The notes beneath the pieces are model-generated. The model was not told the origin of the DNA. It did no database searches and was given only the letters and a program-made list of their open reading frames with translations. This document shows positions 4,054 to 38,536 of a stretch of 64,000 nucleotides of DNA, one piece after another. Source of the stretch: Thermoplasmata archaeon (GTDB taxonomy: Archaea; Thermoplasmatota; Thermoplasmata; Lutacidiplasmatales; UBA184). The translations under genes were made by a program, and so were the position numbers. The stretch spans positions 1 through 64,000 of the forward strand of contig JAGWLG010000012.1 in assembly GCA_028864975.1 (NCBI GenBank). The letters run 5' to 3'. Position 1 is the stretch's first letter; every line of letters starts with the position of its first letter.

Positions 4054-4126
4054 AGGGAGTTTGAAGCCTGGGGTTAGCGGATTCCTCGAGGAACTTCGTC
4101 GGCGAGGGGTTTCGCTCGACTATCGA

Positions 4127-4157
4127 CGCTCATCAACGAGCAGGTAGTTGATGAGCG
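4127..4157. other. Perfect 11-bp stem-loop between convergent transcription units
   Basis: CGCTCATCAAC / 9-nt loop / GTTGATGAGCG. There is no U-tract, so a terminator role is not established. Confidence 0.5.
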
Positions 4158-4196
4158 AGCAATACGAATAACGGCCAGCGTTTACGATAATCGTAA

Positions 4197-10519: not shown

Positions 10520-10557
10520 GAAGGACCTCACCAGACAGTGCGCCGATTTTTCCCGTC

Positions 10558-15733: not shown

Positions 15734-15743
15734 GCGCCCGACC

Positions 15744-16623: not shown

Positions 16624-16686
16624 GCGTACCCCGCGGGGAAGACCGAGCTGCGCCCTTGAAATAGGCCTTCGGGGCTACGCGACCCC

Positions 16687-17613: not shown

Positions 17614-17639
17614 TCGGCGCGTCCCCTTGGACTCGTCCT

Positions 17640-18809: not shown

Positions 18810-18865
18810 CCGAACGGAAAGCCCAAGGGGCGAGTTGAGGCTTTGCTGGAGGGCCTCGAGGAAGT

Positions 18866-20007: not shown

Positions 20008-20081
20008 CGAAGGGCCGAGGGGCCGCGCGGCATTACCTTAAAGAGCCCTGCGACGCTCCGCCATGCGAAGGGCTCTCTTAG

Positions 20082-21278: not shown

Positions 21279-21303
21279 ACAGCGCCTCCGAGGGCCGGCG
21301 CGT

Positions 21304-22212: not shown

Positions 22213-22632
22213 CTACGCTCGAGAGAGCAACCCATGGACCTCTTTCCCTTCCTCGTCCGAAATGCCCCGCCGCTGTCGGGGGAAGGTCGGCTGGTCCTCG
22301 TACCGTGGGATCACATGGAAGTGCAGATGGAAGACGATCTGTCCGGCGAGGGCCCCCTGGTTGACGCCAACATTGTAGTGACGGCTCAGCCGCTCGACCC
22401 GACGGCAGACCTCGGAGAGGGTGCTCAAGAGAGGCGTATACTGCTCGCGCGGGAGCTCCGTCAAGCGGTCGACGTGGCCTTTGGGGACGACGAGGGTATG
22501 CCCCCGGCTCAGCGGGAACTTGTCGAGGAAGGCGATCGTGCCCTCATCCTCGTAAACGATCCGTGCCGGGGCCTCGTGACGTGCGATGGAACAGAAGATG
22601 CAGGGTCCTGCCGGGGAGGCTTCCGGAGGCAT
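22213..22632 (-). CDS. HIT family hydrolase
   Basis: CIFC, AFLD..P...GHTLVVPK, AGQIVFHLHFHVIPR. Start trimmed to ATG 22632. Confidence 0.92.
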   Translation of the reverse strand: MPPEASPAGPCIFCSIARHEAPARIVYEDEGTIAFLDKFPLSRGHTLVVPKGHVDRLTELPREQYTPLLSTLSEVCRRVERLSRHYNVGVNQGALAGQIVFHLHFHVIPRYEDQPTFPRQRRGISDEEGKEVHGLLSRA

Positions 22633-22753
22633 CGGAAGCTCTGGACGCGGCTTTCCTGAAAGAGCCTTCCCTTCTGGCGAGAGGTCGCGGGTCCAAAGCT
22701 CGCCCACGCAAGGGGACGGACACAGCCTTATCTTCGATAGGACGGATGATACG

Positions 22754-25291
22754 ATGAGTTCCATGCTCAACGCACGCGTTCGCTCGGGACTGCGGATCGG
22801 CCTGGTCTTCGCTCTGGCCCTGGTGATGGTCCTCCCGACCGGGGTCCTCCGTGGGGTCCACCTGCCAGGGGCCGGCCCGGTCAGCGGCACGGGAGCCTCC
22901 GTGAGCTCTCCCACGACGCGCTTCGACGCTTCGGCGTCGCCCTCCGACGCCTCCCAGATCGCTGCGCTCTCCTCTGGTCAACCGCTCGTCTTCGTCATTG
23001 GCATGGCCTATCCGGACCCTGGGGCCGTCGAGAGGTTCCTCGCCGATGTCGAGAACCCCTCGTCACCGAACTACCATCACTTCCTGACGTCGGAGCAGTT
23101 CATCCAGCGCTTCTCGCCCCCCTCCACGACCGTGGACGAGGTTCGGGGGTACTTCCTTTCCCGGGGGGCGACCTCGCTCACCGTCACTCCCGATCGCCTC
23201 AGCATGAACTTCGTGCTGCCGGCGGGCAAGGTCGCGACCACTTTCGGGACCTCTCTGGCATGGTTCCGAGCACCTTCGGGGACGGAGTTCTACGCCCCCA
23301 TGGCTCCCCCGCATCTTCCCGCTCCCATCGCTCGCGCGGTCTCGCAGGTCGACGGACTGACGAGCGGTGAGAACACAGGAGTTCACACGTTCCTTCACTC
23401 CATGGGAAGCTTCTCCGTCGCTCCCAATGGGGGGAAGCTCTCATCCCCCGCCCTCTTCGATACCACGACGGACGGGTCCCAGGTCTTCTGGGGAACGGAC
23501 TACCCCGCGGCGTACGGCGCGCAGGGGCTCATCAACAGCGGGATCACTGGAACCGGCTGGGCTGTGGACACGCTGCTTTGGTCGGGCTTCAACAACAGCG
23601 CCCAGAGCAACATGCCTCCCTACGACCCGGGGGCGATCTCCCAGTACCTCTCCGCAACGTTCCCGAGCGGGGCCATCCTACCGACGATCACCCCTGAGGC
23701 GGTCGCGGTTGGCGGGGCCACCCCGCCGCCGCCTGGGACCTACTCCCTGAACGACGATTCCGGGGCTATCATGGAGAACTCGCTCGACCTCGAGATGGTG
23801 GCGAGCACGGCCCCGGGGGCCCACGTGTACAACTGGTACATCCCCGGGAGCGCCCTGACGGGCCAGTCCGAGGCCCCCTTCTATGGAAGGTTCGACTTGG
23901 GCCTGAGCGCCGCGCTCGACTTCAACTACACGGTGAACGGCTCACCGCACGGCCTCGCCGCCATCTCGAACTCCTACGGGCTCACCGATGCGAACGACAG
24001 CCTCTGGGACCAGCTGGAGGCGAAGGCCGCCGGTCAGGGGGTGACCCTCCTGGTCTCTTCCGGGGACTCCGGGGATGCCCCCGATCTCGCGACGGGCCGG
24101 TCGCAGGGGGAGTGGCCCACCTGGCCGGCCACCGCCACGTTCGACACCTATGGTGCGATCGCGGTCGGGGGAACGACCATCACCGTGGGCGGGGCGCCTT
24201 ACCGTGCGGGCTACAACCCGGCCTCGGGCTACCTTCCGCCGATGGGCTACGATGCGAATCAGATCACCGGGCTCACGAGCCAGGTCGTGTGGTACCTGAA
24301 CCAGACGGACCTCACGACGGGAGGGCGGGCCACCGCGGGTAGCGAGGGGGGCATCAGCTCGGTGTACAACGAGCCGCTCTGGCAGGCGCAGTCGGCCGCC
24401 CAGAGCGCCATCAAGTACGCCGCGCCGCGAGAGAGCGTCTCTTACGCGCGAGGCGTCCCGGACATCTCCTCCATCGCGAACGAGACCGTGATCTACACCG
24501 ACACGACCCCCTCGCTCTCTGGGACGTTCGTCGAAGGGACCTCCATCGCCTGCCCGGTCTTTGCGGGCTTTGTGGTCCTCCTCGACCAGATGGACAGCAC
24601 GAACGGGAAGGGGTTGGGCTTCCTCGACCCCCAGCTCTACGCCATCGGCGGCTACTTCGAGAGCCAGGCCCCGGGGAGCCTCGCGGACCCCTTCGGCGGA
24701 CTGGACGACGTGACCTCCGGGCAGAACTGGGTGTTCAATGCCTCCGTGGGTTGGGATCCCACGACCGGCTGGGGGACGCCCAATGTCGCTCGGCTCGCTT
24801 CGGCCCTCCTGAATCCCACCTACACGGGTTTCGTCTACAACCCCAATGCCGTGCCGGGCCAGGCGGGGTCGAACTCGAACCCCGCGCCGGGTCCCGGGTA
24901 CGGCGGGCTGCTCTTCCTTCTCGTGGTCATCGTGGCGGTCGTGGTGGTCATCGCGGTCGTGGCGGTCGTCGTCTCCCGGCGCCGACACCACCCGGCCCCT
25001 GCCGCCGGGCCGCAGGTCGTGTATCATGCGGCCGCACCAGCACCTTACATGGCGGCCCCCCACCCCGCGTACGCCCCCTACCCCACCGCGCCCTCGTACG
25101 CCGCCCCTGCCCCCTACGCCTATGGTCCGCCCACCTACGGTTACCCCATGCCCGCGCCCGTCCCTCCTCCCGCCCCGCCCCCGCCGATGCCGCCCCCACC
25201 GACGGCGGGTCCGGTCTTCTATTGCGGCTACTGCGGGAACCCGAGGCCCTACACCCGGTCGAATTGCCCCACCTGCGGCTCGCCCCTCTAG
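22754..25291 (+). CDS. Membrane-anchored S53 (sedolisin/kumamolisin) peptidase with pro-domain, P/Y-rich tail and zinc ribbon
   Basis: Signal peptide; pro-domain (NYHHFLTSEQFIQRFSP); catalytic ENSLD, SSGDSG, GTSIACP; WDPTTGWGTP; TM; CGYC...CPTC. Confidence 0.92.
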   Translation: MSSMLNARVRSGLRIGLVFALALVMVLPTGVLRGVHLPGAGPVSGTGASVSSPTTRFDASASPSDASQIAALSSGQPLVFVIGMAYPDPGAVERFLADVENPSSPNYHHFLTSEQFIQRFSPPSTTVDEVRGYFLSRGATSLTVTPDRLSMNFVLPAGKVATTFGTSLAWFRAPSGTEFYAPMAPPHLPAPIARAVSQVDGLTSGENTGVHTFLHSMGSFSVAPNGGKLSSPALFDTTTDGSQVFWGTDYPAAYGAQGLINSGITGTGWAVDTLLWSGFNNSAQSNMPPYDPGAISQYLSATFPSGAILPTITPEAVAVGGATPPPPGTYSLNDDSGAIMENSLDLEMVASTAPGAHVYNWYIPGSALTGQSEAPFYGRFDLGLSAALDFNYTVNGSPHGLAAISNSYGLTDANDSLWDQLEAKAAGQGVTLLVSSGDSGDAPDLATGRSQGEWPTWPATATFDTYGAIAVGGTTITVGGAPYRAGYNPASGYLPPMGYDANQITGLTSQVVWYLNQTDLTTGGRATAGSEGGISSVYNEPLWQAQSAAQSAIKYAAPRESVSYARGVPDISSIANETVIYTDTTPSLSGTFVEGTSIACPVFAGFVVLLDQMDSTNGKGLGFLDPQLYAIGGYFESQAPGSLADPFGGLDDVTSGQNWVFNASVGWDPTTGWGTPNVARLASALLNPTYTGFVYNPNAVPGQAGSNSNPAPGPGYGGLLFLLVVIVAVVVVIAVVAVVVSRRRHHPAPAAGPQVVYHAAAPAPYMAAPHPAYAPYPTAPSYAAPAPYAYGPPTYGYPMPAPVPPPAPPPPMPPPPTAGPVFYCGYCGNPRPYTRSNCPTCGSPL

Positions 25292-25763
25292 CGCTCCCGT
25301 GAAATCGGGTGCCGGTTCCAGTCTTGCCAATATCCGCGCACAGGGCGCAAGACGCCCGAGGAAGAGCCCACCTTTCCTGGTCCCACCGTCGGGGAGAAGG
25401 CACGACGCAATTGCCCCCTTGGCTTGTGTAGCAGTTGAGGAGAACGCCCCCCCTACGACACGCATCATCGACGTATCGACGCGAACACCCCCCTGGAACT
25501 CGTGGGAGCCCGGGCGCTACGCGTCCGGTACGTGGGGCTTTTTCGTGTCCCACGGGATGGTCCCGACTACCATCCTGGCGGCTGCTTCCCCGGGGGAGGG
25601 AGGGGAGGAGGAAGGAGTGCGGAGAATGGTCGGGAAGAAGGCCTGCCCTTCGGGGGGGCCGGGACCTGGTCGAGGGTCTCTGCTTCGGAAGGCGCCGAAC
25701 CGACTCCCGGGAGGTCGATGGGCTCTCCACTAGACTTGAATAGACGGACCGAAATGGGTTCGC

Positions 25764-28700
25764 ATGTCAAAGACCCCGACACGGCAGTCTGACCTAGCGA
25801 ACCCCGTCGTCCACCTAGTCAAGGTTCGAGGAACGAGCTCGCTGTCGCGACGATCGGGTAGCATCGGGGATCGTGCCGGACTCATCGGGATATTGCTTCT
25901 ATTGGGGCTGCTGGTCGCACCGACTACGGCGTTCACGACCACGGGGGCCTTGCTGGCGAAGCTGCCCTCCGCGGAGGCGCCCCCTCCGGGGACGGTCCAG
26001 GGCGTGGCAAGCCTCTCGCTCTCGGCTCTTGGTAACTTCCCGGCCCCGCCCCTTGGCTCCGGGCCTTCGGCCCGGCTCCCCGGCGTGATTGACGGCCCCG
26101 GGGGCGATCTGGGCGCGCCCCTCGGCCTTCCGCCTTCCGCGTCGGTCTCTGCCGGGACTCCCCCAACCACGGCATCCCGGGCCCCCTCGTCGGGAGCCTC
26201 CACTCTGCCTCCGCCCCCCTCTTCCTCAGTCTCTTCCCCCTCCACCTTCTCCTCATCCTCCGCGGCGGGCGCCGCGGAGCTTGCGCAGGCGAGCGCCTCC
26301 CTCGGTCAAGGCGGAGGACCGGCGCAGGGCCATGCCATGTCGTGTGCGGCGTCGGCAGCGGGGTCCTTCGAGTGCGATGCGAAGGCTGACGCATCTCCGG
26401 ATCTAGGATTGGGGACCCAGAGCACCACGTGGACCGAAATGGGTACGCCGGGAATGAGGGACGCTGCCTCCATGGTCTATGACCCGGCGGACGGCACGGT
26501 GGTCCTCTTCGGGGGGTACTTCAGCGGTCTCACCCAGGCGGACACCTGGGAGTACCACGGCGGCGTTTGGTATCCGGTGGACTCTCCAATCTCTCCGCCG
26601 GCCCGCTACGCGGCGGCGATGGTCTACGACATCCCCGCCGGCTACGTATTGCTCTTCGGGGGCCAAGGGGCTGGGACTTCAGGGTCCCTCCAGGACACAT
26701 GGGAGTTTTCCGGAGGGACCTGGGTGCAACTCACCTCGACCTCATCGCCGGGGACACGGTATGGCGCCACGATGACGTACGACGCGGCGGACGGATACGT
26801 AGTGCTGTTCGGGGGGTTTGGGTGCTCCACGGGCTCGGGCTGCGTGGCGAGCCTCCTCCAAGACACGTGGCAGTTCTCGGGGGGGGCCTGGACCCAGCTC
26901 ACTCCGACCACGTCGCCGGGAACCCGGTATGACGCCTCGATGACCTACGACACTGCGGACGGGTACGTGGTGCTGTTCGGGGGGCTTGGGTGCTCCACGG
27001 GCTCGGGCTGCGCGGCGAACGAGATCCAGGACACCTGGAAGTTCACGGGAACCACCTGGACCCAGCTCTCCATCCTCGCACTTCCGGGAGCCCGGAATGG
27101 CGCCTCGATGACCTACGACGGGGCGGACGGGTACGTGGTGCTGTTTGGCGGGTATGGGTGTTTCACGGGGTCAAGCTGCGGGTTGCATTGGCTCCAGGAA
27201 ACGTGGAAGCTCATGGGGACCACCTGGACCCTGCTCACTCCCGCGGCCTCGCCGGGAATCCGGGAGGGGGCCACGATGACGTACGACGTGACGGACGGGT
27301 ACGTGGTGCTCTTCGGTGGCCACGGGCCCGGGTCCGCAGGGGGCCTCCAGGACACCTGGAAGTTCTCCGGAGGGACTTGGGCGCAACTGGCTCCGACCAC
27401 GTCGCCGGGAACCCGGACTGGCGCGACGATGACGTTCGACGTGAGGGACGGGTACGTGGTTCTCTTCGGAGGGTTTGGGTGCTCCACGGGCTCGGGCTGC
27501 ACGGTGGACTACCTCCAGGACACGTGGAAGTTCACGGGGACGACCTGGACTCAGCTCTCTCCTACCACGTCGCCCGGAACCCGGCTTGCGGCCTCGATGG
27601 TGTACGACTCGGCGGATAGGTATGTGGCGCTGTTCGGGGGGTATGGGTGCTCCACGGGCTCGGGCTGCGCGGTGGGCTACCTCCAGGACACGTGGAAGTT
27701 CACGGGGACGACTTGGACCCAGCTCACACCGACCACCTCGCCGGGGACCAGGGAATACGCCTCGATGACCTACGACGCGGCTGACGGGTATGTGGTGCTG
27801 TTCGGCGGATATGGGTGCTACACGGGCTCGAGCTGCACGGTGGACTACCTCCAGGACACGTGGCAGTTCACGGGGACGACCTGGAGTCAGTTCGCCCCGA
27901 CCACGTCGCCGGGAACCCGGTATGACGCCTCGATGACCTACGACACTGCGGACGGGTATGTGATGCTGTTCGGGGGGTTCGGGTGCTCCACGGCCTGCAA
28001 CTGGCTCCAGGATACCTGGAGCTTTGGGATTCCGCTGACGGACGCTACGCCTTCGGCGTCGCCCAGCTCCCTGGACGTCGGCCAGGCCTTGCTCCTCACG
28101 TCGTCCGCCACCGGCGGGGGCCAGGGCGCCTCTCACGAGTTCGGTTGGTGGGGGCTACCCCCAGGATGCTCGACCGCAGTGCTGACCGTGAGCGTTTCCT
28201 GCACGCCTTCCAAGGCCGGGACCTACTACGTGGGCACGGTCGTCTCGGAGTCGAACGGTATACCTCTGGCGACGGGACCGACCACCACGGTTACGGTCTA
28301 TCCGGACCCGAGCGCGACCGCGTCCGGGTCGGCCTCCTCGCGCGACGCAGGCCAGACCGTGACCCTGACCGGGCTGACCTCCGGAGGGCTCGGCCCGTTC
28401 TCAGGCATCGTCTGGAACGGCCTTCCCACGGCAAGCAGCTGCGCCGCCGCCGGGAGCCTCACCTGCGCCATCACGCTCTCGTCCTCAGGGGTGGGACAAT
28501 GGACGATCACCGTCTCCGCCACGGATGCGAACGGCTTCACGGCCACCTCGATGGGCGTGGCCCTCACGGTCGACCCAGCGTTGTGCGCCAGCCCTTGCGG
28601 GATCTCGGGCGGGACCTCGCTCGATGTGGGGCAAACCGCGACCGTCCAGGCCTCCGTGAACGGAGGGACAGGGACCTACTCGTACGCCTGGTCCGCCCTG

Positions 28701-31700
28701 TCCGGGGCGGGGTGCCCGACGACCTCGGCGTCGACGGTCGATTGCACGCCCACCGCGACGGGATCGTTCACCGTGGCGTTCGTGGCGACGGACACGAATG
28801 GGGCCACGACCGCCGCCTTAGGGGTCGTTCTGACCGTCTCGGCGGACCCCACCATCACCGCTCCAACCGCTTCGAGGGCGACCCTGGACGTGGGACAGGC
28901 CACGACGCTGACCACCACGGACGCGGGAGGGAGCGGGACCCTGGTGGTCTCGTGGTCCGGGTTGCCGACGGGGTGCCTCAGCTCGAACACGCTGTCGTTC
29001 AGCTGCTCCCCCACGGCGGTCGGGACGTTCACGGTCTACGCCAATGTCCAGGACACGCACCTGTACAACGCCACTTCGGGGCCGCTGACCGTCGTGGTGT
29101 CGCCCAGGCTCAATCCGGGGGGTTCCTTCGCGAGCCCGGCTTCGTTGGACCTTGGCCAGGCTACGACGTTCGTGACCAATGTCAATGGCGGTACCGGTAG
29201 CTACTCCTACGGTTGGATGGCGCTCCCTCCAGGGTGCGCGGCCGCCGATACCGGCACGCTCGTCTGTACGCCAACCGCGACCGGGTCCTTCCTCGTCACA
29301 GTTTCCGTCGTGGACTCGAACAACAATCTTGTGTCCCCGGCTGCCATCGCGCTCACGGTGGGCCCCGACCCTGTGGCGGGGAGCCTCGTCGCCTCCTTGC
29401 GGGGCCTTCCTCAGCTCGGGTCGGCAAGCGCTCCGCTCACCCTGGGATCGACCCCCTCTTGGGTCCTCTACGACCCCGGGAACGGTATGGTCTACGTGGG
29501 GCAAGGGAACTGCTGCGGCGCGGGGAACACGGTCTGGGTGGTGAACCCCTCGACAGGAACGCTGGTGAAGACCATCACGACGGGCAACCTCCCCATCTCC
29601 TTGGCGTACGACAGCGCTCGGGGCGAGGTCTTCGTCGCCGAGTACGGGAACGCCCAGGTGCAGGTGATCGACGACTCGACCAACGCGCTCGTGGCCACCA
29701 TCCCGATGCCGGACGAACCGCTCAGCCTCGGATACGACAGCTGGAACGGCGACGTCTACGTGGCGCTCTATGCGACGAACCGAGTGGCTGTCATCGATGG
29801 CGCCACCGATTCGATCGTCTCGCTCATCGGCGTGGGGTCGGGGCCCAACAGCGCGGCCTTCGACCCAGCGACCGGGGACGTCTGGGTCGGCGACCAGAAC
29901 GGTGCCGCCGTGACCATCATCAACGGTGCCACCAACACCGTGGCGGGGACGGTGACCCTGGCGGCCGGTTCGGTCCCGGTGTTCCTGGTCTACGACCCGG
30001 CCAACGGCGACATGTACGTGCCCACCGGGACCACGCAGTCCATCGACGTGATCGATGCGACGTCGGACGCGATCGTCGACACCGTCGCCACGACGTTCAA
30101 CCCCGAAGAGAGCGCGCTCGACACGGCGAACGGTTACCTCTACGTGGCGGACATCAGCGCGTCGGCGAACGAACTCCAGGCCCTGGACACGCGGACCAAC
30201 ACCCTCGTGGGGACCGTGGGGCTGGGGACGACGGCCTACGGGGTCGCCTACGACAGCTCCAACGGAAGATTGTACGGGAGCGGCTTCGGGAACGGGGACC
30301 TCTTCACGGTCCGCACGCTCTCCTCCGTCTCCCTCCCGAGCTCCATGAGCGCCGACGTCGGGCAGTCGGTCCTCCTCTCGGCCTCCTTGACGGGCCAGGG
30401 GAGCGGTGGGGACCGGGTGTCCCTCTCCGTCTCCCCCGCCGCGGGGTTTACCTGCATCGCCGACCCCTACGGGTACGCGAACCTTAGTGCCGGATGTCTC
30501 GCCGAGACCCCTGGCTCGTATCAGCTATACTTCCAGCTGACGGACTCGAACGGATTCACCGTCTCGACAGGGACCCTGACGCTCGTGGTCGATCCCGCGC
30601 TGGGAGGAGCCAGCGTCTCCGTCTCCCGTCTCGCCCTCGACGTGGGACAGACGACGGCCCTTTCGGCCTCCGTGAGCGGGGGCGCGGGCAGCTACGCGTA
30701 CGCTTGGTCGACCCTGCCGACCGGATGCTCGGTGGGCGACGTCGGCGCCTTCAGCTGCGTGCCCTCGGGCGCGGGGTCGTTCGCGGTGGCCCTCATCGTT
30801 ACGGATGGGAACGGGGCTTCGACCTCCGCTGGGACGACCTTGTCGGTCTCCCTCGACCCCACGATCTCGCCACCCACCGGGACCCTGACCCGTCTGGATG
30901 TGGGGTCCTCGACGGTCCTGGCTGCGACCGCTACGCCCGGTAGCGGTGGGGACGTTTACGCCTGGAGCGGGCTTCCGACCCCGTGCCTCTCTTCCAACGC
31001 GCTCTCCATCGTCTGCGCTCCCAGCGCGTCGGGCGAGGGGACGTTCGACGTGACGGTCAGCGTCGTCGATTCGAACGGCTGGAACGTCACCTCCGGCCCC
31101 CTGACCATCGAGGTCGACCCCCCACTGGGGATCTCCTCGTTCACAGAATCCCGCCCCGCCCTTGACGTGGGGCAGACCGTGGTCTTCGCCGTGAGCCCGA
31201 CCGGCGGCTCCGGGGTCTACACCTACACGTGGGGAGCCATCCCCGCTGGATGCGCGCGGGTCGACGCGGCCACGCTCACTTGTGTTCCCACCGGGAGCGG
31301 TAGCACCACGGTGTCGGTCTCCGTGGGCGACACGAACGGAGCCTCGCTCCCGTCGGCTGGGCTCGCGGTCGTGGTCAGCGCGGACCCCGCGGTCTCCTCG
31401 CCGGGGGCGAGCACGAGCTCGCTCGACATGGGCCAGTCCACGAGCCTCTCGACCGTGGTCTCGCCGGGGAGCGGCACGGATGTCCTCTCCTGGGCGGGCC
31501 TCCCTGCGGGCTGCCTGAGCTCGAACGCGAACCCGGTCTCGTGCGCGCCTTCGGCCTCCGGGACCTTCACCGTCACAGTCGCTGTCCGGGACTCGAACGG
31601 GATGAACGTGAGCTCGGGCCCCTTGACGCTCGTCGTCTCCCCCGCGCTCTCCGCGGTTGCCTTGACCGCCTCTCCGGGCGCGCTCGACGTGGGGCAGAGC

Positions 31701-34700
31701 TTGACGTTCTCGGCCTCGGTCTCCGGTGGCTCCGGGGTCTACGTCTGGTCCTGGGCGACCCTCCCGACGGGGTGCGCGGGCGCGAACGCTGCCACGCTCA
31801 CCTGCTCGCCAACGGCCGCGGGCTCTTACAGCGCCCAGGCGACGGCGACGGACTCCAATGGGGCGTCCTCGAGCCACAGCGCGGCCATCGTGGTGTCCGC
31901 GGCGGTCACGGTGGGCTCCATCTCCGCGACACGCTGGGACCTGGATGTGAGCCAGAGCTCGACGCTCACGGCCACGGTCGCGGGCGGAAGCCCCTCCTTC
32001 GCCTACGCCTGGGCGGGCCTCCCTGCCGGGTGCCTGAGCTCGAACGCGCTCTCGCTGTCCTGCTCCCCCACCGCGAGCGGGACGTTCGCCCTCACGTTCT
32101 CGGCTCGGGACTCGAACGGGATGAACGTGAGCTCGACCACGATGGCCATGGTGGTGTCCCCAGCGCTGGGGACCCCCTCGATAACGGCCTCCACCCCGAA
32201 CCTGGACGTGGGACAGACCGTTTCGTTCCTCGCCGCCGAGTCGGGAGGGACCGGCAGCTACAGCTACTCGTGGACCTATAATGGGATCCGGGCGGACCTG
32301 GTTGGTTGCACGGGGCAGGCCACCGCGAGCCTCACCTGCACGCCCACGAGCTCGGGCGTTCCCAATATCGTGGTCACCGTCTCGGACAGCAACGCGGCCC
32401 CCCCCCAGACCCGGTCGACGACCGTGACGGTCTCGGCGGACCCGACGGTCCAGCCGATCACGGGGAGCCGGACGACGCTCGACCTCGGACAGTCGACCTT
32501 GCTCTCGACCACCTCCGCCCAGGGTAGTGGTGGCCCGACCTACGCCTGGGCCGGCCTCCCCGCTGGGTGCCTGAGCTCGAACGCTCTCTCGATCACCTGC
32601 GCTCCCGCGGGGGCCGGCACGTTTAGCGTGACGGTCTCCGTGCGCGACTCCAATGGGGTGAACGTGAGCTCGATCCCCCTGACGTTGATCGTCTCTCCGG
32701 CGATGGGAAGCGCAGCCCTCGCGGCCGCGCCATCTGCCCTCGACGTAGGCGAGACGACCACGCTGTCTTCCTCGGCCTCGGGCGGGACAGGGGTCTACGT
32801 TTACGCCTACTCGGGCCTGCCCACGGGATGCTCCTCGGCGAACAGCGCGACGCTCGCCTGCTCCCCCTCGGCCGCGGGGACCTTCCCCTCGGTCGCGCTC
32901 ACGGTCACCGACGGGAACGGTGCGACGGCCACGGCCATGATTCCGATCGCCGTCTCGGCGGCTCCCGTTGCGGGGACGCCCGCGGCCTCCAAGCCCTCCC
33001 TGGACGTGGGTCAGACCACCTCGATCAGCGCCCTGGCCTCCGGAGGGAGCGGCGGCGACGTCTACTCCTGGAGCGGTCTCCCCACCGGGTGCCTGAGCCA
33101 GAACCTGCTCTCCTTGACCTGCACCCCCACGGTCGCGGGCACCTTCAGCGTGCGCCTCTCGGTGCTGGACTCGAACCGGATGAACGTCACCTCGGGAACG
33201 CTCACCCTAGCGATCTCCCCCGCTCTCGCGGGCGCCTTGCTCACCGCGAGCCGTAGCCTCCTCGACGTAGGCCAGACGACCCTCTTCGCGGCTTCGGCTT
33301 CGGGCGGTGCGGGAGGCGACACGTTCGCCTGGTCAGGGCTGCCCAGCGGTTGCTCGGGGGGCAGCTCGTCCTCTGTAACCTGTGTCCCGGCTGCCAGCGG
33401 ACCTTTCACCGTGAGCATCGTGGCGACGGACGCGAACGGGGCTACCGCCTCCGCGAACGTGGCCCTCACGGTCTCCAGCGACCCGTCGGTGAGCGTCCCC
33501 TCGTCCTCGAGGAGCTCGCTCGACGTGGGACAGAGCACGAGCCTCTCCTCCGTCGCCACGCCAGGGAGCGGCACGCCGGTGTACGCCTGGTCGGGGCTGC
33601 CCACGGGCTGCCTCAGCGCGAACGCGCTCACGCTCAGCTGCGCCCCGACGGGGGCCGGGACCTTCGTGGTACGGGTCACGGTCCAGGACTCGAACGGGAT
33701 GAACGTCAGTTCGGGGACGCTGACCCTCCTGGTCTCCACGGCGCTAGGGACCCCCTCGCTCTCGGCCTCCACCGCGACGTTGGACGTGGGGCAGAGCGTC
33801 ACCTTCACGGCGACCGAGGCGGGCGGCAGTGGGACCTACACCTTCACGTGGACGTGGGCCGGGAACCCGGCCTCGTCCGAAGGGTGCACGGGGGGGAACG
33901 CGGCCACCATCGTCTGCACCCCCACCTTCTCCCAGTCCCCGAGCGTCGTGGTCTCGGTCTCCGACAGCAACGGCATGGGCGGGCTCGTGGCCTCCACGTC
34001 GGTCGTCGTGTCGGCGGACCCCACGGTGACCTCCCCAGGCGCAACCCGCTTGGCCCTCGACATCGGCCAGTCGACGGTCCTCTCCGCGACCGCCACCACG
34101 GGGAGCGGTGGACCCACCTACGCCTGGTCGGGTCTGCCGACGGGCTGCCTGAGCGCGAACGCCCTCACGGTCACCTGCTCCCCGACGGCCGTCGGCACCT
34201 ACAGCGTGTCGATCTCGGTCCGGGACTCGAACGGGATGAACGTGAGCTCGACTACGTTGACCTTGGTGGTCTCCCCCGCACTGGGAGCCGTCGGGCTCTC
34301 CGCCTCGTCCTACAACTTGGACGTGGGGCAGTCCACGACGTTCTCGGTCTCGGTGAGCGGCGGCACGGGCAGCTACACCTACACGTGGGGATCCCTTCCC
34401 TCCGGGTGCGTGGGGTCGTCCACGCCTACGCTCCTCTGCGCTCCGTCGGGCGCCGGCAGTACCACCGTGGTCGTGTCCGTCGCGGACACGAACGGGGTGC
34501 TCTCTGGCTCGGGGCCCGTGACGGTGATAGTCCAGGCGCCCCCCAGTGTGACCTCGCTCGGTGCGACCCGACTCGACCTTGACGTAGGCCAGTCGACGAC
34601 CCTCACCGCCGCGGCCACCGCGGGCAGTGGCGGCCCCGTGTACGCGTGGTCGGGACTTCCGACCGGGTGTCTCAGTTCCAATGCGCTCTCGGTGACCTGC

Positions 34701-37700
34701 TCGCCCACCGCCCCGGGGACCTTCACGGCGGTCTTCTCGGTGCGCGACTCCAATCGCATGAACGTGAGCTCGGGCGCCCTCACCCTCGTCGTCTCCCCGG
34801 CGTTCGGGACGGCGACCCTGAGCGGAAGTCGTCTCGCCCTGGACGCGGGTCAAACGGTGCTCCTCACGACCTCGGTTTCGGGAGGATCGGGCGGCGACTC
34901 CTATGCCTGGAGCTCGCTCCCGACCGGATGTGGCGGGGCGAACTCGGCGACGCTATCCTGCGTCCCCAGCGGCGCCGGCACCCCCACCGTCTCCGTGACG
35001 GTCACGGACAGCAATGGGGCCACCGCCTCGGCCACACTCCCGCTGACCGTCTCCTCCGCCCCGACCATCTCCCTCCCGACCGCCTCGAGGACTGCGCTGG
35101 ACGTGGGCCAATCCACGACCCTCAGCGCGACCGCGACCTCGGGAAGCGGGAGCCCGGTCTACGCTTGGTCGGGCCTCCCCGCTGGCTGCTTGAGCTCGAA
35201 CGCCCTGTCGGTGGCCTGCACGCCCTCGGGGTCAGGGACCTTCAGCGTCGCGGTGTCGGTCGTGGACTCGAACGGGATGAACGTGAGTTCCGGCCCCCTG
35301 ACCCTGGCGGTCTCGCCGGCGTTGGGGTCGGCGACCCTCTCGGCGAGCCGGAGCGCGCTGGACGTCGGGCAGTTTACCGCGCTCTCGGGCGCCGTCAGCG
35401 GCGGAACGGGGAGCTACACTTACTCCTGGGGCTCCCTCCCCTCGGGTTGCTCGGGCTCGAACGCGGTCGCGATCGTGTGCTCCCCCACCGCGGCGGGGAC
35501 GTTCTCGGTGGCTCTCACGATCACGGACACCAACGGGGCCAGCGCGACCCCCGCGCCGGTGTCGCTCGCGGTCTCCGCAGCCCCCTCGGTGGGGTCGCTC
35601 GGTGCGACCCGCCTCGACCTGGACGTGGGACAGCTGACCACGCTCGCAGGGACGGCGACCGGCGGCAGCGGCGGGGACGCCTATGCCTGGGTCGGGCTCC
35701 CCACGGGGTGCTTGAGTTCCAACTCGCCCTCGGTGGCCTGTTCGCCCACCGCCGCCGGGACCTTCTCCATCGCGCTCTCGGTCATCGATTCGAACGGGAT
35801 GAACGTGAGCTCGCCGTCGCTGCTTCTCTCGGTCTCTCCCGCGCTCGCGGCCGCGGCGCTCAGCGCTGGGCGGAGCGCTCTGGACGTGGGACAGGCGACG
35901 ACCCTCTCCGCTTCCGCCTCGGGCGGGTCGGGCGGCCTCTCCTACTCCTGGTCGGGGCTGCCCACCGGCTGCAGCAGCGGGGGGCGGGCTTCCTTCGCCT
36001 GCGCTCCGACCTCCCCCGGGACGTCCTCGGTGTCCGTCGTGATCACGGACTCGAACGGAGCGAGCGTCTCGGCCTCGACGACGCTCACGGTCTCGTCCGC
36101 GCCCTGGGCCGGGTCGCCTACGGCGAGCCCGAGCGCTCTCGATGTCGGGCAGACGACCGCCCTTGCCGCCACCGCGGGGGCGGGGAGCGGTTCGCCGACC
36201 TACGCCTGGGGGGGCCTCCCCGCGGGGTGCTTGTCGGTGAGCTCGCTCATCCTCACGTGCTCCCCCATGAGTTGGGGGTCGTTCACGGTGGTGCTGAGCG
36301 TTGTGGACTCGAACGGGATGAACGTCTCCTCCGCGCCACTTCTGCTCCCCATCTCTCCGGCTCTCGCCGGGGCGACCCTCTCGGCTTCCCCCGGCGCGCT
36401 GGACGTGGGGCAGTCGACTGCCCTCTCCTTCTCCGTCTTCGGCGGCTCCGGCGGCTTGACCTACGCGTGGTCCGGTCTTCCCGCGGGCTGCGCGGGAGGG
36501 AACTCGGCCACGCTCCTCTGCTCGCCCACCGCTAGCGGCACCGGCCTTGCGACGGTCCGTGCGACCGACGCCAACGGCGCCTCGGTCTCGGCGAGCGTCT
36601 CGCTCACCGTGTCGGCGGCCCTCTCCGTGGCTGCGCCCTCCGCCTCCCCCTCGGCGGCAGACGCGCAGCAGGCCGTGACGCTCTCCGCCCTGGCTTCCGG
36701 AGGGGCGGGCACCCTGGTCTACGCATGGTGGGGCCTTCCTTCCGGATGCCTCTCCTCGAACCTGGCGACCCTCCCCTGCACGCCCGCGGCCCCGGGGAGG
36801 TTCATGGTGGGCTACAGCGTACTGGACGCGAACGGAGAGAACGTGAGCTCCCCCGCGCTCTCCTTCAGCGTGTCGGCGGCGCTCTCGACCCCTGTCCTGG
36901 CGGCCTCCTTAACGGCGCTGGACCTGGGCGAGGGCACGACGATCGCCGCGACGGTGGCGGGGGGGTCCTCCCCCCTCGCCTATGCCTGGGCCGGGCTCCC
37001 GACCGGGTGCACAGGGTCCGACACGCCCACCTTGGCCTGCGCGCCCTCCCTGACCGGGACCTTCTCGGTGTCGCTCAGGGTCTCTGACGCGAACGGGGGC
37101 ACGGCCACCTCGGCAGCTCTGACGCTCACCGTTTCGGCCGCTCCCACGGTGGGGATTCCGATGGCGACGCTGACGTCGCTGGACCTGGGGCAGACGACCT
37201 CGCTCACGGTGCCCTCGACCCCGGGGAGCGGCGGGCTCGTGCTGAACTGGTCGGGACTCCCGACGGGCTGCCCGGCCTCGGGGCTCCCCTCCTGCACGCC
37301 GACCGCGACCGGCACGTTCTCGATTTGGGTCTCGGCCAAGGACTCGAACGGGGTCACCGTCGTGGGCGCCCCTCTCGTCCTCACCGTTGACGGGGCCCTC
37401 GCGGCGGTCACGCTGACCGCGAGCTCAAAGGACGTGGACGCGGGGTCAGAGGTCACGCTGACAGCCGAAGTCTCGGGCGGGAGCGGGGGTTACGCCTACT
37501 CGTGGTCCGCGCTTCCCACGGGCTGCGCGGGGGCGGACGTCGCCACGTTGCTCTGCTCCCCCTCGGCCGCCGGGTCGTTCGCGGCCGCGGTCCAGGTCTC
37601 GGACACGAACGGGGCCACCTCCTCGGCCTCGGTCTCGATCACGGTGAACGCCCCGCTCTCTGTCGCGCTGTCGGATAGCCCCACCTCCGCCTCGAACGGG

Positions 37701-38252
37701 GCGACGCTCACCTTCACGGCGTCCGCGGCGGGCGGGAGTTCGCCGACTGTTTACGCCTGGTCGCTCAACGGGACGGCGCAGGCGGGCGCGACGGGGTCGA
37801 CCTTCACCATCGCGGGAGCTCACGCCGGGACCTACTCGGTGTCGGTCGCGGTCTCGGACGCGACCGGCTCGCGCGCGATCGCCCCCACGGTATCGGTCAC
37901 GGTGAGCCCGCCGGTCCCCCCAGCGTCTACGCCCCCGGCGCCGACACTCTCCCCCTCGTCCTTCGCGTCGGAGTCCAACCTGCTGGTGGGGCTCCTCGCA
38001 ATCCTGGTCGCGCTCGCGGTGGCGATCCTGCTGATGCAGGCCCTCGGCCGGCGCTCTCGGCCCCCGGCCTCCGGGGTCGCGGGGAAGGCCAGACCGCCGC
38101 GGCCGCGCGCCCGTCCTGCGGTGCTCGAGACTCCCCCGGCCTCCCCCGAAGGGGTTGCGACCCCCCCGCCCCCCTCCCCCGTCGCGGGCGGCGAGGCGGA
38201 GCCTGTCTCCGGGACCGGCCCCGAGACCTACTCCGAGGATGGAGAAGCCTAG
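25764..38252 (+). CDS. Giant (4,162 aa) surface protein: 10 Kelch repeats, 7-bladed YVTN-type propeller, 34 Ig/PKD-like repeats, C-terminal TM
   Basis: Uninterrupted ORF with an N-terminal hydrophobic signal, repeats counted by hand from the translation, and TM LLVGLLAILVALAVAILL near the end. Confidence 0.92.
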   Translation: MSKTPTRQSDLANPVVHLVKVRGTSSLSRRSGSIGDRAGLIGILLLLGLLVAPTTAFTTTGALLAKLPSAEAPPPGTVQGVASLSLSALGNFPAPPLGSGPSARLPGVIDGPGGDLGAPLGLPPSASVSAGTPPTTASRAPSSGASTLPPPPSSSVSSPSTFSSSSAAGAAELAQASASLGQGGGPAQGHAMSCAASAAGSFECDAKADASPDLGLGTQSTTWTEMGTPGMRDAASMVYDPADGTVVLFGGYFSGLTQADTWEYHGGVWYPVDSPISPPARYAAAMVYDIPAGYVLLFGGQGAGTSGSLQDTWEFSGGTWVQLTSTSSPGTRYGATMTYDAADGYVVLFGGFGCSTGSGCVASLLQDTWQFSGGAWTQLTPTTSPGTRYDASMTYDTADGYVVLFGGLGCSTGSGCAANEIQDTWKFTGTTWTQLSILALPGARNGASMTYDGADGYVVLFGGYGCFTGSSCGLHWLQETWKLMGTTWTLLTPAASPGIREGATMTYDVTDGYVVLFGGHGPGSAGGLQDTWKFSGGTWAQLAPTTSPGTRTGATMTFDVRDGYVVLFGGFGCSTGSGCTVDYLQDTWKFTGTTWTQLSPTTSPGTRLAASMVYDSADRYVALFGGYGCSTGSGCAVGYLQDTWKFTGTTWTQLTPTTSPGTREYASMTYDAADGYVVLFGGYGCYTGSSCTVDYLQDTWQFTGTTWSQFAPTTSPGTRYDASMTYDTADGYVMLFGGFGCSTACNWLQDTWSFGIPLTDATPSASPSSLDVGQALLLTSSATGGGQGASHEFGWWGLPPGCSTAVLTVSVSCTPSKAGTYYVGTVVSESNGIPLATGPTTTVTVYPDPSATASGSASSRDAGQTVTLTGLTSGGLGPFSGIVWNGLPTASSCAAAGSLTCAITLSSSGVGQWTITVSATDANGFTATSMGVALTVDPALCASPCGISGGTSLDVGQTATVQASVNGGTGTYSYAWSALSGAGCPTTSASTVDCTPTATGSFTVAFVATDTNGATTAALGVVLTVSADPTITAPTASRATLDVGQATTLTTTDAGGSGTLVVSWSGLPTGCLSSNTLSFSCSPTAVGTFTVYANVQDTHLYNATSGPLTVVVSPRLNPGGSFASPASLDLGQATTFVTNVNGGTGSYSYGWMALPPGCAAADTGTLVCTPTATGSFLVTVSVVDSNNNLVSPAAIALTVGPDPVAGSLVASLRGLPQLGSASAPLTLGSTPSWVLYDPGNGMVYVGQGNCCGAGNTVWVVNPSTGTLVKTITTGNLPISLAYDSARGEVFVAEYGNAQVQVIDDSTNALVATIPMPDEPLSLGYDSWNGDVYVALYATNRVAVIDGATDSIVSLIGVGSGPNSAAFDPATGDVWVGDQNGAAVTIINGATNTVAGTVTLAAGSVPVFLVYDPANGDMYVPTGTTQSIDVIDATSDAIVDTVATTFNPEESALDTANGYLYVADISASANELQALDTRTNTLVGTVGLGTTAYGVAYDSSNGRLYGSGFGNGDLFTVRTLSSVSLPSSMSADVGQSVLLSASLTGQGSGGDRVSLSVSPAAGFTCIADPYGYANLSAGCLAETPGSYQLYFQLTDSNGFTVSTGTLTLVVDPALGGASVSVSRLALDVGQTTALSASVSGGAGSYAYAWSTLPTGCSVGDVGAFSCVPSGAGSFAVALIVTDGNGASTSAGTTLSVSLDPTISPPTGTLTRLDVGSSTVLAATATPGSGGDVYAWSGLPTPCLSSNALSIVCAPSASGEGTFDVTVSVVDSNGWNVTSGPLTIEVDPPLGISSFTESRPALDVGQTVVFAVSPTGGSGVYTYTWGAIPAGCARVDAATLTCVPTGSGSTTVSVSVGDTNGASLPSAGLAVVVSADPAVSSPGASTSSLDMGQSTSLSTVVSPGSGTDVLSWAGLPAGCLSSNANPVSCAPSASGTFTVTVAVRDSNGMNVSSGPLTLVVSPALSAVALTASPGALDVGQSLTFSASVSGGSGVYVWSWATLPTGCAGANAATLTCSPTAAGSYSAQATATDSNGASSSHSAAIVVSAAVTVGSISATRWDLDVSQSSTLTATVAGGSPSFAYAWAGLPAGCLSSNALSLSCSPTASGTFALTFSARDSNGMNVSSTTMAMVVSPALGTPSITASTPNLDVGQTVSFLAAESGGTGSYSYSWTYNGIRADLVGCTGQATASLTCTPTSSGVPNIVVTVSDSNAAPPQTRSTTVTVSADPTVQPITGSRTTLDLGQSTLLSTTSAQGSGGPTYAWAGLPAGCLSSNALSITCAPAGAGTFSVTVSVRDSNGVNVSSIPLTLIVSPAMGSAALAAAPSALDVGETTTLSSSASGGTGVYVYAYSGLPTGCSSANSATLACSPSAAGTFPSVALTVTDGNGATATAMIPIAVSAAPVAGTPAASKPSLDVGQTTSISALASGGSGGDVYSWSGLPTGCLSQNLLSLTCTPTVAGTFSVRLSVLDSNRMNVTSGTLTLAISPALAGALLTASRSLLDVGQTTLFAASASGGAGGDTFAWSGLPSGCSGGSSSSVTCVPAASGPFTVSIVATDANGATASANVALTVSSDPSVSVPSSSRSSLDVGQSTSLSSVATPGSGTPVYAWSGLPTGCLSANALTLSCAPTGAGTFVVRVTVQDSNGMNVSSGTLTLLVSTALGTPSLSASTATLDVGQSVTFTATEAGGSGTYTFTWTWAGNPASSEGCTGGNAATIVCTPTFSQSPSVVVSVSDSNGMGGLVASTSVVVSADPTVTSPGATRLALDIGQSTVLSATATTGSGGPTYAWSGLPTGCLSANALTVTCSPTAVGTYSVSISVRDSNGMNVSSTTLTLVVSPALGAVGLSASSYNLDVGQSTTFSVSVSGGTGSYTYTWGSLPSGCVGSSTPTLLCAPSGAGSTTVVVSVADTNGVLSGSGPVTVIVQAPPSVTSLGATRLDLDVGQSTTLTAAATAGSGGPVYAWSGLPTGCLSSNALSVTCSPTAPGTFTAVFSVRDSNRMNVSSGALTLVVSPAFGTATLSGSRLALDAGQTVLLTTSVSGGSGGDSYAWSSLPTGCGGANSATLSCVPSGAGTPTVSVTVTDSNGATASATLPLTVSSAPTISLPTASRTALDVGQSTTLSATATSGSGSPVYAWSGLPAGCLSSNALSVACTPSGSGTFSVAVSVVDSNGMNVSSGPLTLAVSPALGSATLSASRSALDVGQFTALSGAVSGGTGSYTYSWGSLPSGCSGSNAVAIVCSPTAAGTFSVALTITDTNGASATPAPVSLAVSAAPSVGSLGATRLDLDVGQLTTLAGTATGGSGGDAYAWVGLPTGCLSSNSPSVACSPTAAGTFSIALSVIDSNGMNVSSPSLLLSVSPALAAAALSAGRSALDVGQATTLSASASGGSGGLSYSWSGLPTGCSSGGRASFACAPTSPGTSSVSVVITDSNGASVSASTTLTVSSAPWAGSPTASPSALDVGQTTALAATAGAGSGSPTYAWGGLPAGCLSVSSLILTCSPMSWGSFTVVLSVVDSNGMNVSSAPLLLPISPALAGATLSASPGALDVGQSTALSFSVFGGSGGLTYAWSGLPAGCAGGNSATLLCSPTASGTGLATVRATDANGASVSASVSLTVSAALSVAAPSASPSAADAQQAVTLSALASGGAGTLVYAWWGLPSGCLSSNLATLPCTPAAPGRFMVGYSVLDANGENVSSPALSFSVSAALSTPVLAASLTALDLGEGTTIAATVAGGSSPLAYAWAGLPTGCTGSDTPTLACAPSLTGTFSVSLRVSDANGGTATSAALTLTVSAAPTVGIPMATLTSLDLGQTTSLTVPSTPGSGGLVLNWSGLPTGCPASGLPSCTPTATGTFSIWVSAKDSNGVTVVGAPLVLTVDGALAAVTLTASSKDVDAGSEVTLTAEVSGGSGGYAYSWSALPTGCAGADVATLLCSPSAAGSFAAAVQVSDTNGATSSASVSITVNAPLSVALSDSPTSASNGATLTFTASAAGGSSPTVYAWSLNGTAQAGATGSTFTIAGAHAGTYSVSVAVSDATGSRAIAPTVSVTVSPPVPPASTPPAPTLSPSSFASESNLLVGLLAILVALAVAILLMQALGRRSRPPASGVAGKARPPRPRARPAVLETPPASPEGVATPPPPSPVAGGEAEPVSGTGPETYSEDGEA
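26447..28027 (+). repeat. Coding tandem repeat: 10 Kelch-like units (about 153-168 bp)
   Basis: GGGTGCTCCACGGGCTCGGGCTGC occurs at 26820, 26988, 27477 and 27645. An identical 62-bp segment occurs at 26904-26965 and 27897-27958. Confidence 0.9.
28028..37910 (+). repeat. Coding tandem repeat: 34 Ig/PKD-like units of about 87 aa (interrupted by a beta-propeller at about 29448-30317)
   Basis: Consensus LDVGQ...GG.G..Y.W..LP.GC-x9-C.P...G.F.V.V...D.NG recurs about every 260 bp. Confidence 0.9.
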
Positions 38253-38536
38253 AGCTACCCCGAGACTTCCAGGAAAAGGTCCTGTCGCTCCATCGCCGAG
38301 CTCCCAGACCGGCGGCAAGCAGGGCTACCTAACGACGCAGCAGTTCGCCTCCCTCTTGCTTCTGCCATCTGGGCGAACGCGAGTCCCACCCGGCCGTTAC
38401 ACCATTCCCGCGTCTCTGTGGCGGCGCGGACCTCTGGACCTCCCACAAGAAAGTGGGGGGTTGAGGATAGCTATCGCTCAGCTCTGGCTTCTCAGAGCGG
38501 TCCCATGTCGCGCCGGGCAGGGGGGTGCGAGCCCGC

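Follow-up and report, generated by a model that had tools for sequence, protein, structure and literature searches.

A predicted 4,162-amino-acid surface protein with two propeller types and 34 PKD domains in an uncultured Thermoplasmata archaeon

The window analyzed here is a stretch of 64,000 nucleotides (contig JAGWLG010000012.1) from the metagenome-assembled genome of an uncultured Thermoplasmata archaeon (3.6 Mb in 124 contigs, 89.6% complete), and it contains an open reading frame (ORF) for a protein of 4,162 amino acids, which we refer to as the giant gene. The genome gave an archaeal 16S match, and a distant homolog of its S53 peptidase bears the name Thermoplasmata archaeon. From the N-terminus, the giant protein contains a signal region, a linker rich in serine and proline, 10 Kelch blades, 5 PKD domains, a seven-blade YVTN propeller, 29 further PKD domains, a transmembrane (TM) helix and a proline-rich tail. 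We predict that it is probably a long-reach, type-I membrane-anchored cell-surface receptor or adhesin, which is likely to be N-glycosylated. The protein is an extreme member of a lineage-specific family in which heads are combined with PKD stalks and TM anchors, and it represents a new combination of well-known parts rather than a new kind of system.

In the favored model, the protein would be exported via Sec, its C-terminal helix would be retained in the membrane, and the 68-residue proline-rich tail would be cytoplasmic. The 29 disulfide-stapled PKD domains would form an extended stalk, which could measure about 100 nm or more in a straight conformation and would be followed outward by the in-line seven-blade YVTN propeller, the 5 PKD domains and the ten-blade Kelch array at the tip. 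The propellers would act as ligand-binding modules, and the stalk would set the reach and resist force. As a guess, the candidate ligand is a glycan or some other polymer on the surface of neighboring cells.

Gene integrity and propeller modules

The giant gene contains no internal termination codon in any of its 4,162 codons, and the GC content at third codon positions (GC3) is 0.88 in this frame, showing that the ORF did not arise by chance. With 12,489 of the 64,000 nucleotides, it takes up 19.5% of the window, close to the 20% estimated in the first-pass annotation, a previous reading of the same DNA. The order of domains given in that annotation, where the PKD domains were called Ig domains, was recovered throughout (Table 1).

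Table 1. Features of the giant gene and its immediate flanks, with positions in the window and residues in the protein
Feature	Residues	Position	Strand	Description and basis
AT-rich TATA-like box CTTGAATAGA		25735..25744	+	20-29 nt 5' of the ATG; read from sequence
Whole gene		25764..38252	+	Predicted 4,162-aa type-I membrane-anchored surface protein; open frame, GC3 0.88, matches in other assemblies
Signal region	1-56	25764..25931	+	Basic 38-aa n-region, h-region 39-51; hydropathy scan
S/P-rich low-complexity linker	57-165	25932..26258	+	Read from sequence
Pre-Kelch cap	166-225	26259..26438	+	Helix and hairpin with C194-x9-C204; AF2 secondary structure
Kelch array, ten blades	226-761	26439..28046	+	Pfam profiles, blade splitting, AF2
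Five PKD (Ig-like) domains	762-1205	28047..29378	+	Motif splitting, alignment
YVTN-type beta-propeller, seven blades	1206-1521	29379..30326	+	phmmer against 1L0Q, repeats readable in sequence
Stalk, 29 PKD domains	1522-4052	30327..37919	+	Pfam, identity matrix, sequon count, AF2
Juxtamembrane P/S-rich linker	4053-4072	37920..37979	+	Read from sequence
TM helix	4073-4094	37980..38045	+	Followed by RRSR (positive-inside); hydropathy maximum 3.19
Putative cytoplasmic Pro-rich tail	4095-4162	38046..38249	+	Ends in E-T-Y-S-E-D-G-E-A; read from sequence
Structured 3' flank		38242..38493	+	Overlaps the stop codon; RNA fold -106.8 kcal/mol, z -2.79

At the DNA level, the copies were 62% to 72% identical in the stalk and 62% to 78% identical in the Kelch array, and the protein domains were at most 74% identical, which makes a collapse of repeats in a short-read assembly unlikely. 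The 90%-identity cluster of the giant protein contained 4 other entries. One of these (P0025) is the entry of the giant protein from its own contig of 79,744 bp, and another (P0024), encoded by a 140-kb contig in a different assembly, was identical except for the called start. The third (P0002), from a 178-kb contig in another assembly, differed by 2 substitutions, T657A and A3151T, and contained no insertions or deletions. The fourth (P0026), encoded by a 13-kb contig in another assembly that ends within the stalk, was identical except for an extra Kelch blade of 56 amino acids after residue 657. The stalk copy number is reproducible across assemblies. The extra blade had no exact copy among the existing blades and therefore looks like a real variant, which puts the number of Kelch blades in the population at 10 or 11. 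It was also noted that T657A in P0002 falls at the same spot as the blade insertion in P0026, and this spot may be a recombination hot spot at which the blade number is altered.

We consider it exceedingly improbable that the gene is an assembly artefact with a wrong number of repeats, or a decaying gene in which the ten-blade array is the remnant of a 12-blade head. The end of the P0026 contig inside the stalk repeats and its extra blade could be taken in this sense, as could the count of 10 blades, which is unique among relatives with 6 or 12 blades. However, the 140-kb and 178-kb contigs gave the same length with 0 to 2 substitutions and no indels, the repeats are only 62% to 78% identical in DNA sequence, the frame remains open over 12.5 kb with a high GC3 value, and the extra blade itself looks real.

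Within the cluster, the start was called at 4 positions, residues 1, 47, 231, and 237. The start at residue 1 is favored because the frame opens at position 25740 and has the ATG at position 25764 as its earliest start codon, because an AT-rich box is located upstream of it, and because no other start gives a signal sequence similar to those of the paralogs. The box, CTTGAATAGA, is a putative promoter element and would fit a leaderless or near-leaderless archaeal transcript.

The Kelch array scored above the Pfam cut-offs for Kelch_4 (94.9 bits, cut-off 21.6), Kelch_3 (78 bits, cut-off 22), and PF24981 Beta-prop_ATRN-LZTR1 (80.6 bits, cut-off 50). The blade lengths were 51, 56, 56, 56 / 51, 56, 56, 56 / 52 residues, and 7 of the 10 blades contained a cysteine loop, which was of the type C-x5-C in 6 blades and C-x3-C in one. 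A search of the Kelch region against the sequences of solved structures yielded no match at E<=1e-3. The array is preceded by a cap that is common to other Kelch-headed members of the family, with the motif visible in P0003 and P0011, and several library matches to the Kelch head aligned from query positions 3 to 10, thereby including the cap; its AlphaFold2 (AF2) pLDDT was only about 57 to 64.

An AF2 model of the Kelch head (residues 165 to 765), built from an alignment of 25 homologs, had a pLDDT of 83 and a pTM of 0.53. In an exhaustive structural search, all strong matches to this model spanned either model residues 60 to 330 or 330 to 601, and each half could be superposed on solved six-blade Kelch domains over 228 to 255 residues, with Z scores of 26 to 28 and a root-mean-square deviation (rmsd) of 2.2 to 2.8 Å (VIA-align). 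Since the strong matches are confined to one half each, the model consists of two five-blade lobes with the curvature of a six-blade propeller and not of one ten-blade ring. With 10 blades, or 11 in P0026, and a model that is split into two lobes, the array does not correspond to a canonical closed propeller, which has six or seven blades, and the previous view of the 10 blades as one propeller head was not supported by the model. The array ends in a DTWSF strand and has a TWTEM strand at its N-terminal side; judging from their sequences, these 2 strands could pair and close the array end to end.

The YVTN module consists of seven repeats of about 42 amino acids and is homologous to the surface-layer protein 1L0Q of Methanosarcina mazei, with an E value of 3.3e-26 in 2 stretches (phmmer against PDB, 1l0q_A). 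A vicinal cysteine pair is located at residues 1250 and 1251. In NCBIfam, residues 1226 to 1491 showed similarity to YncE, PQQ_ABC_repeats, and TIGR02276, all of it below the curated cut-offs (23.2 vs. 27.85 for TIGR02276 and 64 vs. 400 for YncE), and the Pfam score for PF10282 was 18.6 against a cut-off of 21.7, although the homology is nonetheless clear. A search of genome contigs with the head region retrieved only weak bacterial YVTN/PKD matches of 25% to 38% identity. The first-pass annotation had assigned 2 different propeller heads to the protein: there are indeed 2 propeller types, but the YVTN propeller occupies an in-line position, separated from the tip by five PKD domains. An enzymatic role for the propellers, of the galactose-oxidase, sialidase, or lactonase-like kind, was also considered. 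Sialidases and a copper oxidase appeared with Z scores of 15 to 16 among the structural matches of the Kelch model, and the Lactonase/YncE profile scores were weak, with no curated cut-off reached.

The PKD stalk and the membrane anchor

The 34 PKD units were mutually alignable and scored above the Pfam cut-offs for PF00801 (132.1 bits, cut-off 23.5), PF22352 K319L-like_PKD (87 bits, cut-off 27), and PF18911 PKD_4 (48.5 bits, cut-off 27). The domains of the stalk alternate between 2 types, here called A and B, with the exception of an atypical first domain and a last domain without cysteines. The amino acid sequence identities ranged from 55% to 74% between B-type domains and mostly from 40% to 60% between A-type domains, whereas those between A-type and B-type domains were 25% to 45%. 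Neighboring domains are hence 25% to 45% identical, and domains of the same type located two apart mostly 40% to 74%. Low identity between neighbors is reportedly expected if a tandem Ig array is to avoid misfolding of one domain with the next (Wright et al. 2005). Two longer A-type domains are spaced six domains apart, which suggests a higher-order unit of six domains.

All 86 cysteines are found in local pairs within the predicted extracellular part of the protein. The previously noted C-x9-C pair in nearly every Ig domain was present in its exact form in 29 of the 34 PKD domains, with spacings of 7, 10, or 13 residues in another 4 domains and no pair in the last. Together with the N-terminal signal and the single C-terminal TM helix followed by RRSR, this pairing agrees with the earlier description of the protein as an extracellular, membrane-anchored rod, in which the cysteine pairs would form disulfides.

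Four consecutive PKD domains of the stalk (ABAB) were modeled with AF2, using 13 internal copies as the alignment, and the resulting all-beta model had a pLDDT of 90.4. Its best matches in PDB were four-domain stretches of GhpA, a bacterial protein with Ig-like repeats (9flp, TMq 0.64, rmsd 5.6 Å, 23% identity), and because it superposes on the extended GhpA strand, the stalk is modeled as an extended rod. A sequence search with a PKD pair against solved structures gave only weak matches, which were to phage decoration proteins. An Ig-like domain is about 4 nm long, and at this length the stalk with its 29 domains would measure at most about 115 nm, and the complete ectodomain at most about 150 nm. 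Read as an upper bound, the reach of more than 100 nm proposed in the first-pass annotation seems fair, given the confident four-domain model and its fit to the extended GhpA strands. The domain-wise modeling and structural search called for in that annotation thus supported the PKD stalk as an extended Ig-like array, but not the Kelch array as a single ring.

N-x-S/T sequons were depleted in the ectodomain, where 16 were observed compared to 28 ± 4.4 in shuffled sequences. Thirteen of the 16 fell on position 70 in PKD domains of the B type, one per 174 residues, such that every B-type domain contained one, and none was located in the Kelch array or the YVTN propeller. This periodicity suggests that glycans are attached to the stalk as a regular ladder and that the heads are left bare. 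A match to STT3/AglB above the Pfam cut-off was identified in the same genome. This sole match (C97:13419-14162, minus strand, locus L012) is located within an open frame of 2,205 amino acids, which is unusually long for an oligosaccharyltransferase.

Only 2 hydrophobic segments were identified in the protein from its hydropathy, one at residues 39 to 56 and the other at residues 4073 to 4094. The first includes the h-region and, after it, a putative signal-peptidase site, P-T-T-A/F, where the signal would be cleaved. The subsequent linker and cap (residues 58 to 225) contain 25.6% serine and threonine, 13.7% proline, and no sequons, and GC3 dips to 0.62 over positions 26101 to 26300, which correspond to the 3' part of the linker and the start of the cap.

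The N-terminal segment could also be an uncleaved signal-anchor, so that the protein would form a loop anchored at both ends, with the propellers near the membrane on the 110-residue linker and the PKD array arching out and back. We regard this as decidedly unlikely. The n-region is long and basic, the hydrophobic stretch measures up to about 19 residues (39 to 57), and a long disordered linker would be sensible as a tether, but P53-T-T-A56/F is an acceptable signal-peptidase site after an h-core of 13 residues, the N-terminal hydropathy of 2.2 is far below the value of 3.2 for the C-terminal TM helix, and in the paralog P0011 a linker of the same type is preceded by a short signal peptide of the classical kind.

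Other types of signals and anchors were also inspected. A Tat signal was ruled out, since the arginine pair in S-R-R (residues 28 to 30) is located 8 residues ahead of the h-region and lacks the F-L-K context of such signals. A type IV pilin-like (class III) signal was not recognized at residues 36 to 41 (D-R-A-G-L-I); such a signal would have a [KRDE][GA] cleavage motif immediately ahead of the hydrophobic stretch, and the glycine at +1 departs from this FlaFind-type pattern. Proteins with a PGF-CTERM anchor for archaeosortases are defined by a C-terminal PGF-like motif together with a TM helix and a tail that is short and basic; the giant protein contains no PGF motif ahead of the TM helix, and its tail is 68 residues long and rich in proline.

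Proline makes up 25% of the last 56 residues of the tail. Within its own genome, a YSED ending was found only in the giant protein and in its closest paralog, encoded on contig C54, but the endings EYSED or EYTEE were also present in P0005 and P0126 from other genomes. The acidic sequence E-Y-S/T-E-D/E is thereby found at or near the end of 4 giant surface proteins and may be a short linear docking motif for a cytoplasmic partner.

A surface-protein family and an accessory locus

Hidden Markov models built from the domains of the giant protein were searched against all ORFs of at least 150 amino acids in its genome and identified 132 ORFs, of which 122 were retained at stricter thresholds. These 122 ORFs comprise 443 kb, or 12.3% of the assembly. 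The protein was earlier viewed as a singular object, but it is one member, albeit an extreme one, of this lineage-specific family. Family members are typically built from a signal and either six Kelch blades or a YVTN propeller, to which several PKD domains and a TM helix are added. Runs of 6 Kelch blades were observed 31 times in the genome, runs of 12 blades in 3 proteins, and 3 runs of 6 blades in one protein, whereas 10 blades were found only in the giant protein. It is also the only family member in the genome that combines Kelch blades with a YVTN propeller, and it has the highest number of PKD domains, 34 compared to 24 in the next highest. As stated in the first-pass annotation, the giant protein is composed mostly of serine, threonine, alanine, glycine, and valine (62.2% in total), with only 0.4% lysine and 0.9% glutamate. 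However, the whole family is poor in lysine, arginine, and glutamate and rich in serine and threonine relative to the remaining proteome, and the low-charge composition therefore says nothing specific about the giant gene. The acid or oxidation stability and the adhesion to minerals or DPANN symbionts that were proposed in the first-pass annotation are conjectural.

The paralog P0003 (C54, positions 13519 to 21843; 2,742 amino acids) resembles the giant protein in having a signal, an S/P linker, the pre-Kelch cap, Kelch blades with cysteine loops, PKD domains of both the A and B types, a TM helix, and a proline-rich tail, which ends in EEYSEDKE. The head regions of the 2 proteins are 47% to 50% identical. 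P0003 differs from the giant protein in lacking a YVTN propeller and in its numbers of Kelch blades (12) and PKD domains (20). The window contains a second family member (positions 7010 to 10531, minus strand), which encodes 1,173 amino acids with C-terminal PKD domains and a weak match to a phosphoesterase family. A larger open frame of 7,343 amino acids is located outside the window (C79:23019-45050, minus strand) and contains 4 PKD-like domains near the C-terminus, with no match to the 3 domain models used in the N-terminal 6,800 residues.

The Kelch head type is widespread in metagenomes, with 31,557 cluster representatives at E<=1e-3, and 21 other giant proteins of 2,289 to 7,284 amino acids share portions of the head region. 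In a search of 30 related genomes, family-level matches were found in all 18 of the genomes that belong to the same taxonomic family, and they thinned out across the order and the class. No ortholog of the giant gene was identified in any of these 30 genomes with the head region as the query. The best matches in the 3 congeneric genomes had 38% to 40% identity over part of the query, which is below the 47% observed for the C54 paralog in the same genome.

The genes for LeuRS, dCTP deaminase, orf398, Memo, S53 peptidase, ScpB, ScpA, and SMC were found in this order in all 3 congeneric genomes, and the SMC proteins were 80% to 81% identical to the congeners. The genes for the S53 peptidase and ScpB are convergent and separated by only 94 to 367 bp in the 3 congeners, whereas the corresponding segment here is 13.2 kb and holds the giant gene with its flanks. 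Since this junction is conserved without the giant gene in the congeners, we conclude that the giant gene is accessory, and the distribution would most simply be explained by a gain in its own lineage. Neither insertion borders nor target-site duplications were recognized, and the intergenic DNA of the congeners could not be aligned to the flanks of the giant gene. In a genome from another genus, the gene for Memo directly adjoins the gene for ScpB. In an other-genus genome (G005), an ORF of 1,477 amino acids without a Pfam match (L022:1549-5982, plus strand) converges on the gene for ScpB in the same manner as the giant gene, and the ScpB-convergent site may be a hot spot for accessory genes.

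The gene located upstream of the giant gene (positions 22586 to 25291, plus strand) encodes a membrane or secreted peptidase of the S53 (sedolisin) type, as indicated by its pro-kumamolisin activation domain; the S53 peptidases of the congeners (L018, L019, and L020) end in a zinc-ribbon-like motif, C-x2-C ... C-x2-C. Downstream, the structured 3' flank of the giant gene lies in the segment that is missing from the congeners. The 2 ends of this flank pair with each other, and only 1 out of 200 shuffled sequences folded as well. The flank had no match in Rfam, and neither intrinsic-terminator-like nor sigma-70-type sites were found.

The size of the family and the sequon ladder also bear on a structural role, in which about 120 paralogs would build a protein-glycan canopy, as a substitute for an S-layer or as a glycocalyx, with the giant protein as a spacer or the outermost layer rather than a specific binder. 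In line with this, the closest solved relative of the YVTN propeller (1L0Q) is annotated as a surface-layer protein, the family occupies 12.3% of the assembly, the sequons form a regular ladder on the stalk, and the low-charge composition rich in serine and threonine is family-wide. A core component of the envelope would, however, be expected to be conserved, whereas the giant gene is missing from the conserved locus in 3 congeners and has no ortholog elsewhere in these genomes with the head query. Furthermore, the sequon-free propeller heads resemble binding surfaces, and formation of a lattice is unlikely for one gene whose architecture is unique. We therefore consider the canopy unlikely.

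Several observations weigh against a role of the giant protein as a receptor or adhesin with its heads at the free end. The number of Kelch blades, 10 or 11 in one contig, deviates from the 6 or 12 blades in every relative in the genome, and AF2 gave no confident closed propeller, as reflected in the pTM value, such that the Kelch head may be non-canonical or partly decayed. The structural neighbors of the Kelch lobes include peptide-binding adaptors, lectins, and sialidases alike, and the fold therefore gives no pointer to the ligand. The n-region of 38 residues is unusually long and a disordered linker of about 110 residues is odd at a free distal tip, which makes an N-terminal signal-anchor with tethering at both ends possible. 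Finally, the adjoining genes are housekeeping genes, and no glycosyltransferase, sortase-like, or secretion genes were located beside the giant gene.

The novelty here resides in the presence of 2 propeller types in one chain, the longest stalk, the array of 10 or 11 blades, the sequon ladder, and the presence/absence polymorphism. More broadly, uncultured Thermoplasmata of the same taxonomic family devote about an eighth of the genome to proteins with a head, a PKD stalk, and an anchor. The giant gene provides a handle on how archaea without a classical wall make contact with other cells or particles, and on how tandem propellers tolerate the gain and loss of blades.

Comparison with known systems

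In giant bacterial repeat adhesins, such as those of the MpIBP, LapA, and SiiE class, an array of Ig-like extender domains projects distal ligand-binding domains away from the cell, as is here proposed for the giant protein. Unlike the giant protein, these adhesins are substrates of type I secretion systems, have Ca-binding BIg repeats, and are anchored in the outer membrane at the opposite end, and the homology is limited to the Ig-like fold.

The best structural match to the stalk, GhpA of Aureispira, is a protein of 5,898 amino acids with 52 Ig-like repeats that forms heptameric hooks of 240 nm with disulfides and glycans (bioRxiv 10.1101/2024.01.29.577165). GhpA (PDB 9flp, 9flu, and 9flw, among others) resembles the giant protein in that an N-terminal signal is combined with a distal module for binding and with a long stem made up of tandem Ig-like domains. 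It differs in being bacterial and heptameric, in having no propellers, and in being a type IX secretion system (T9SS) substrate that is anchored in the outer membrane; the sequence identity is about 20%. No T9SS-type sorting domain was identified among the Pfam and NCBIfam matches of the giant protein.

By analogy with the heptameric GhpA hook, several giant proteins might be bundled into a rigid, multi-stranded fibre for catching partner or prey cells, which we consider very improbable. The best PDB matches of the stalk model were to GhpA stem and neck fragments (E values of 5e-12 to 1e-10, TMq 0.45 to 0.64), and GhpA likewise combines an N-terminal, distal binding module with disulfides and glycans. 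Such structural similarity would, however, be given by any extended array of tandem Ig-like domains, and the sequence identity between the stalk and GhpA is only 18% to 23%. The outer membrane that holds GhpA is absent from the archaeal host, each chain of the giant protein has its own TM anchor, and there is no pointer to oligomerization. A complex prediction with 2 copies of the four-domain ABAB piece gave a score of 0.00, speaking neither for nor against bundling.

A more far-reaching proposal, which we view as strongly doubtful, is that the giant protein serves as a hypervariable, strain-specific, long-range catching filament in a probably wall-less archaeon, as a counterpart of the bacterial grappling hook. 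Unequal recombination would then add and remove Kelch blades (10 or 11 in the giant protein, 6 or 12 in the paralogs), a non-canonical open or double five-blade array would bind partner cells, episymbionts, or viruses with its Cys-loop face, and the EYSED end of the tail would couple binding on the outside to a partner on the inside. If this were true, the Cys-loop face would be the variable binding site.

For the receptor or adhesin that we favor, the closest counterparts are archaeal. In Mia14, an archaeon related to ARMAN, large and strain-specific surface proteins contain PKD domains together with Kelch and YVTN propellers and were proposed to function in cell-cell contact (Golyshina et al. 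2017, PMC5498576). The Mia14 proteins carry fused CARDB-like modules and belong to a DPANN episymbiont, whereas the giant protein is encoded by a 3.6-Mb Thermoplasmata genome and has a much longer stalk; no CARDB domain was identified in it in the Pfam search.

The papers that cite the structure 1L0Q (PMC5498576, PMC2862302) credit Jing et al. (2002, Structure 10:1453) with this surface-layer protein from M. mazei, which has a YVTN beta-propeller and a PKD domain. Both 1L0Q and the giant protein are archaeal, secreted proteins with the same domain set, in which a homologous seven-blade YVTN propeller is directly followed by a PKD domain. The Methanosarcina proteins of this type are far shorter, and the giant protein adds the Kelch array, 34 PKD domains with paired cysteines, the TM anchor, and the putative proline-rich cytoplasmic tail. 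Its likeness to S-layer proteins consists of the domain homology to 1L0Q and does not imply a lattice-forming role. For the mechanical strength of PKD domains, the archaeal domain from 1L0Q was selected as a stable model (PMC2862302), and archaeal surface proteins with PKD, Kelch, and YVTN domains have been interpreted as modules for cell-cell interactions (PMC5498576). The role as a receptor or adhesin that we predict for the giant protein is thus the one already proposed in the literature for archaeal surface proteins with PKD, YVTN, and Kelch domains (PMC5498576, PMC2862302).

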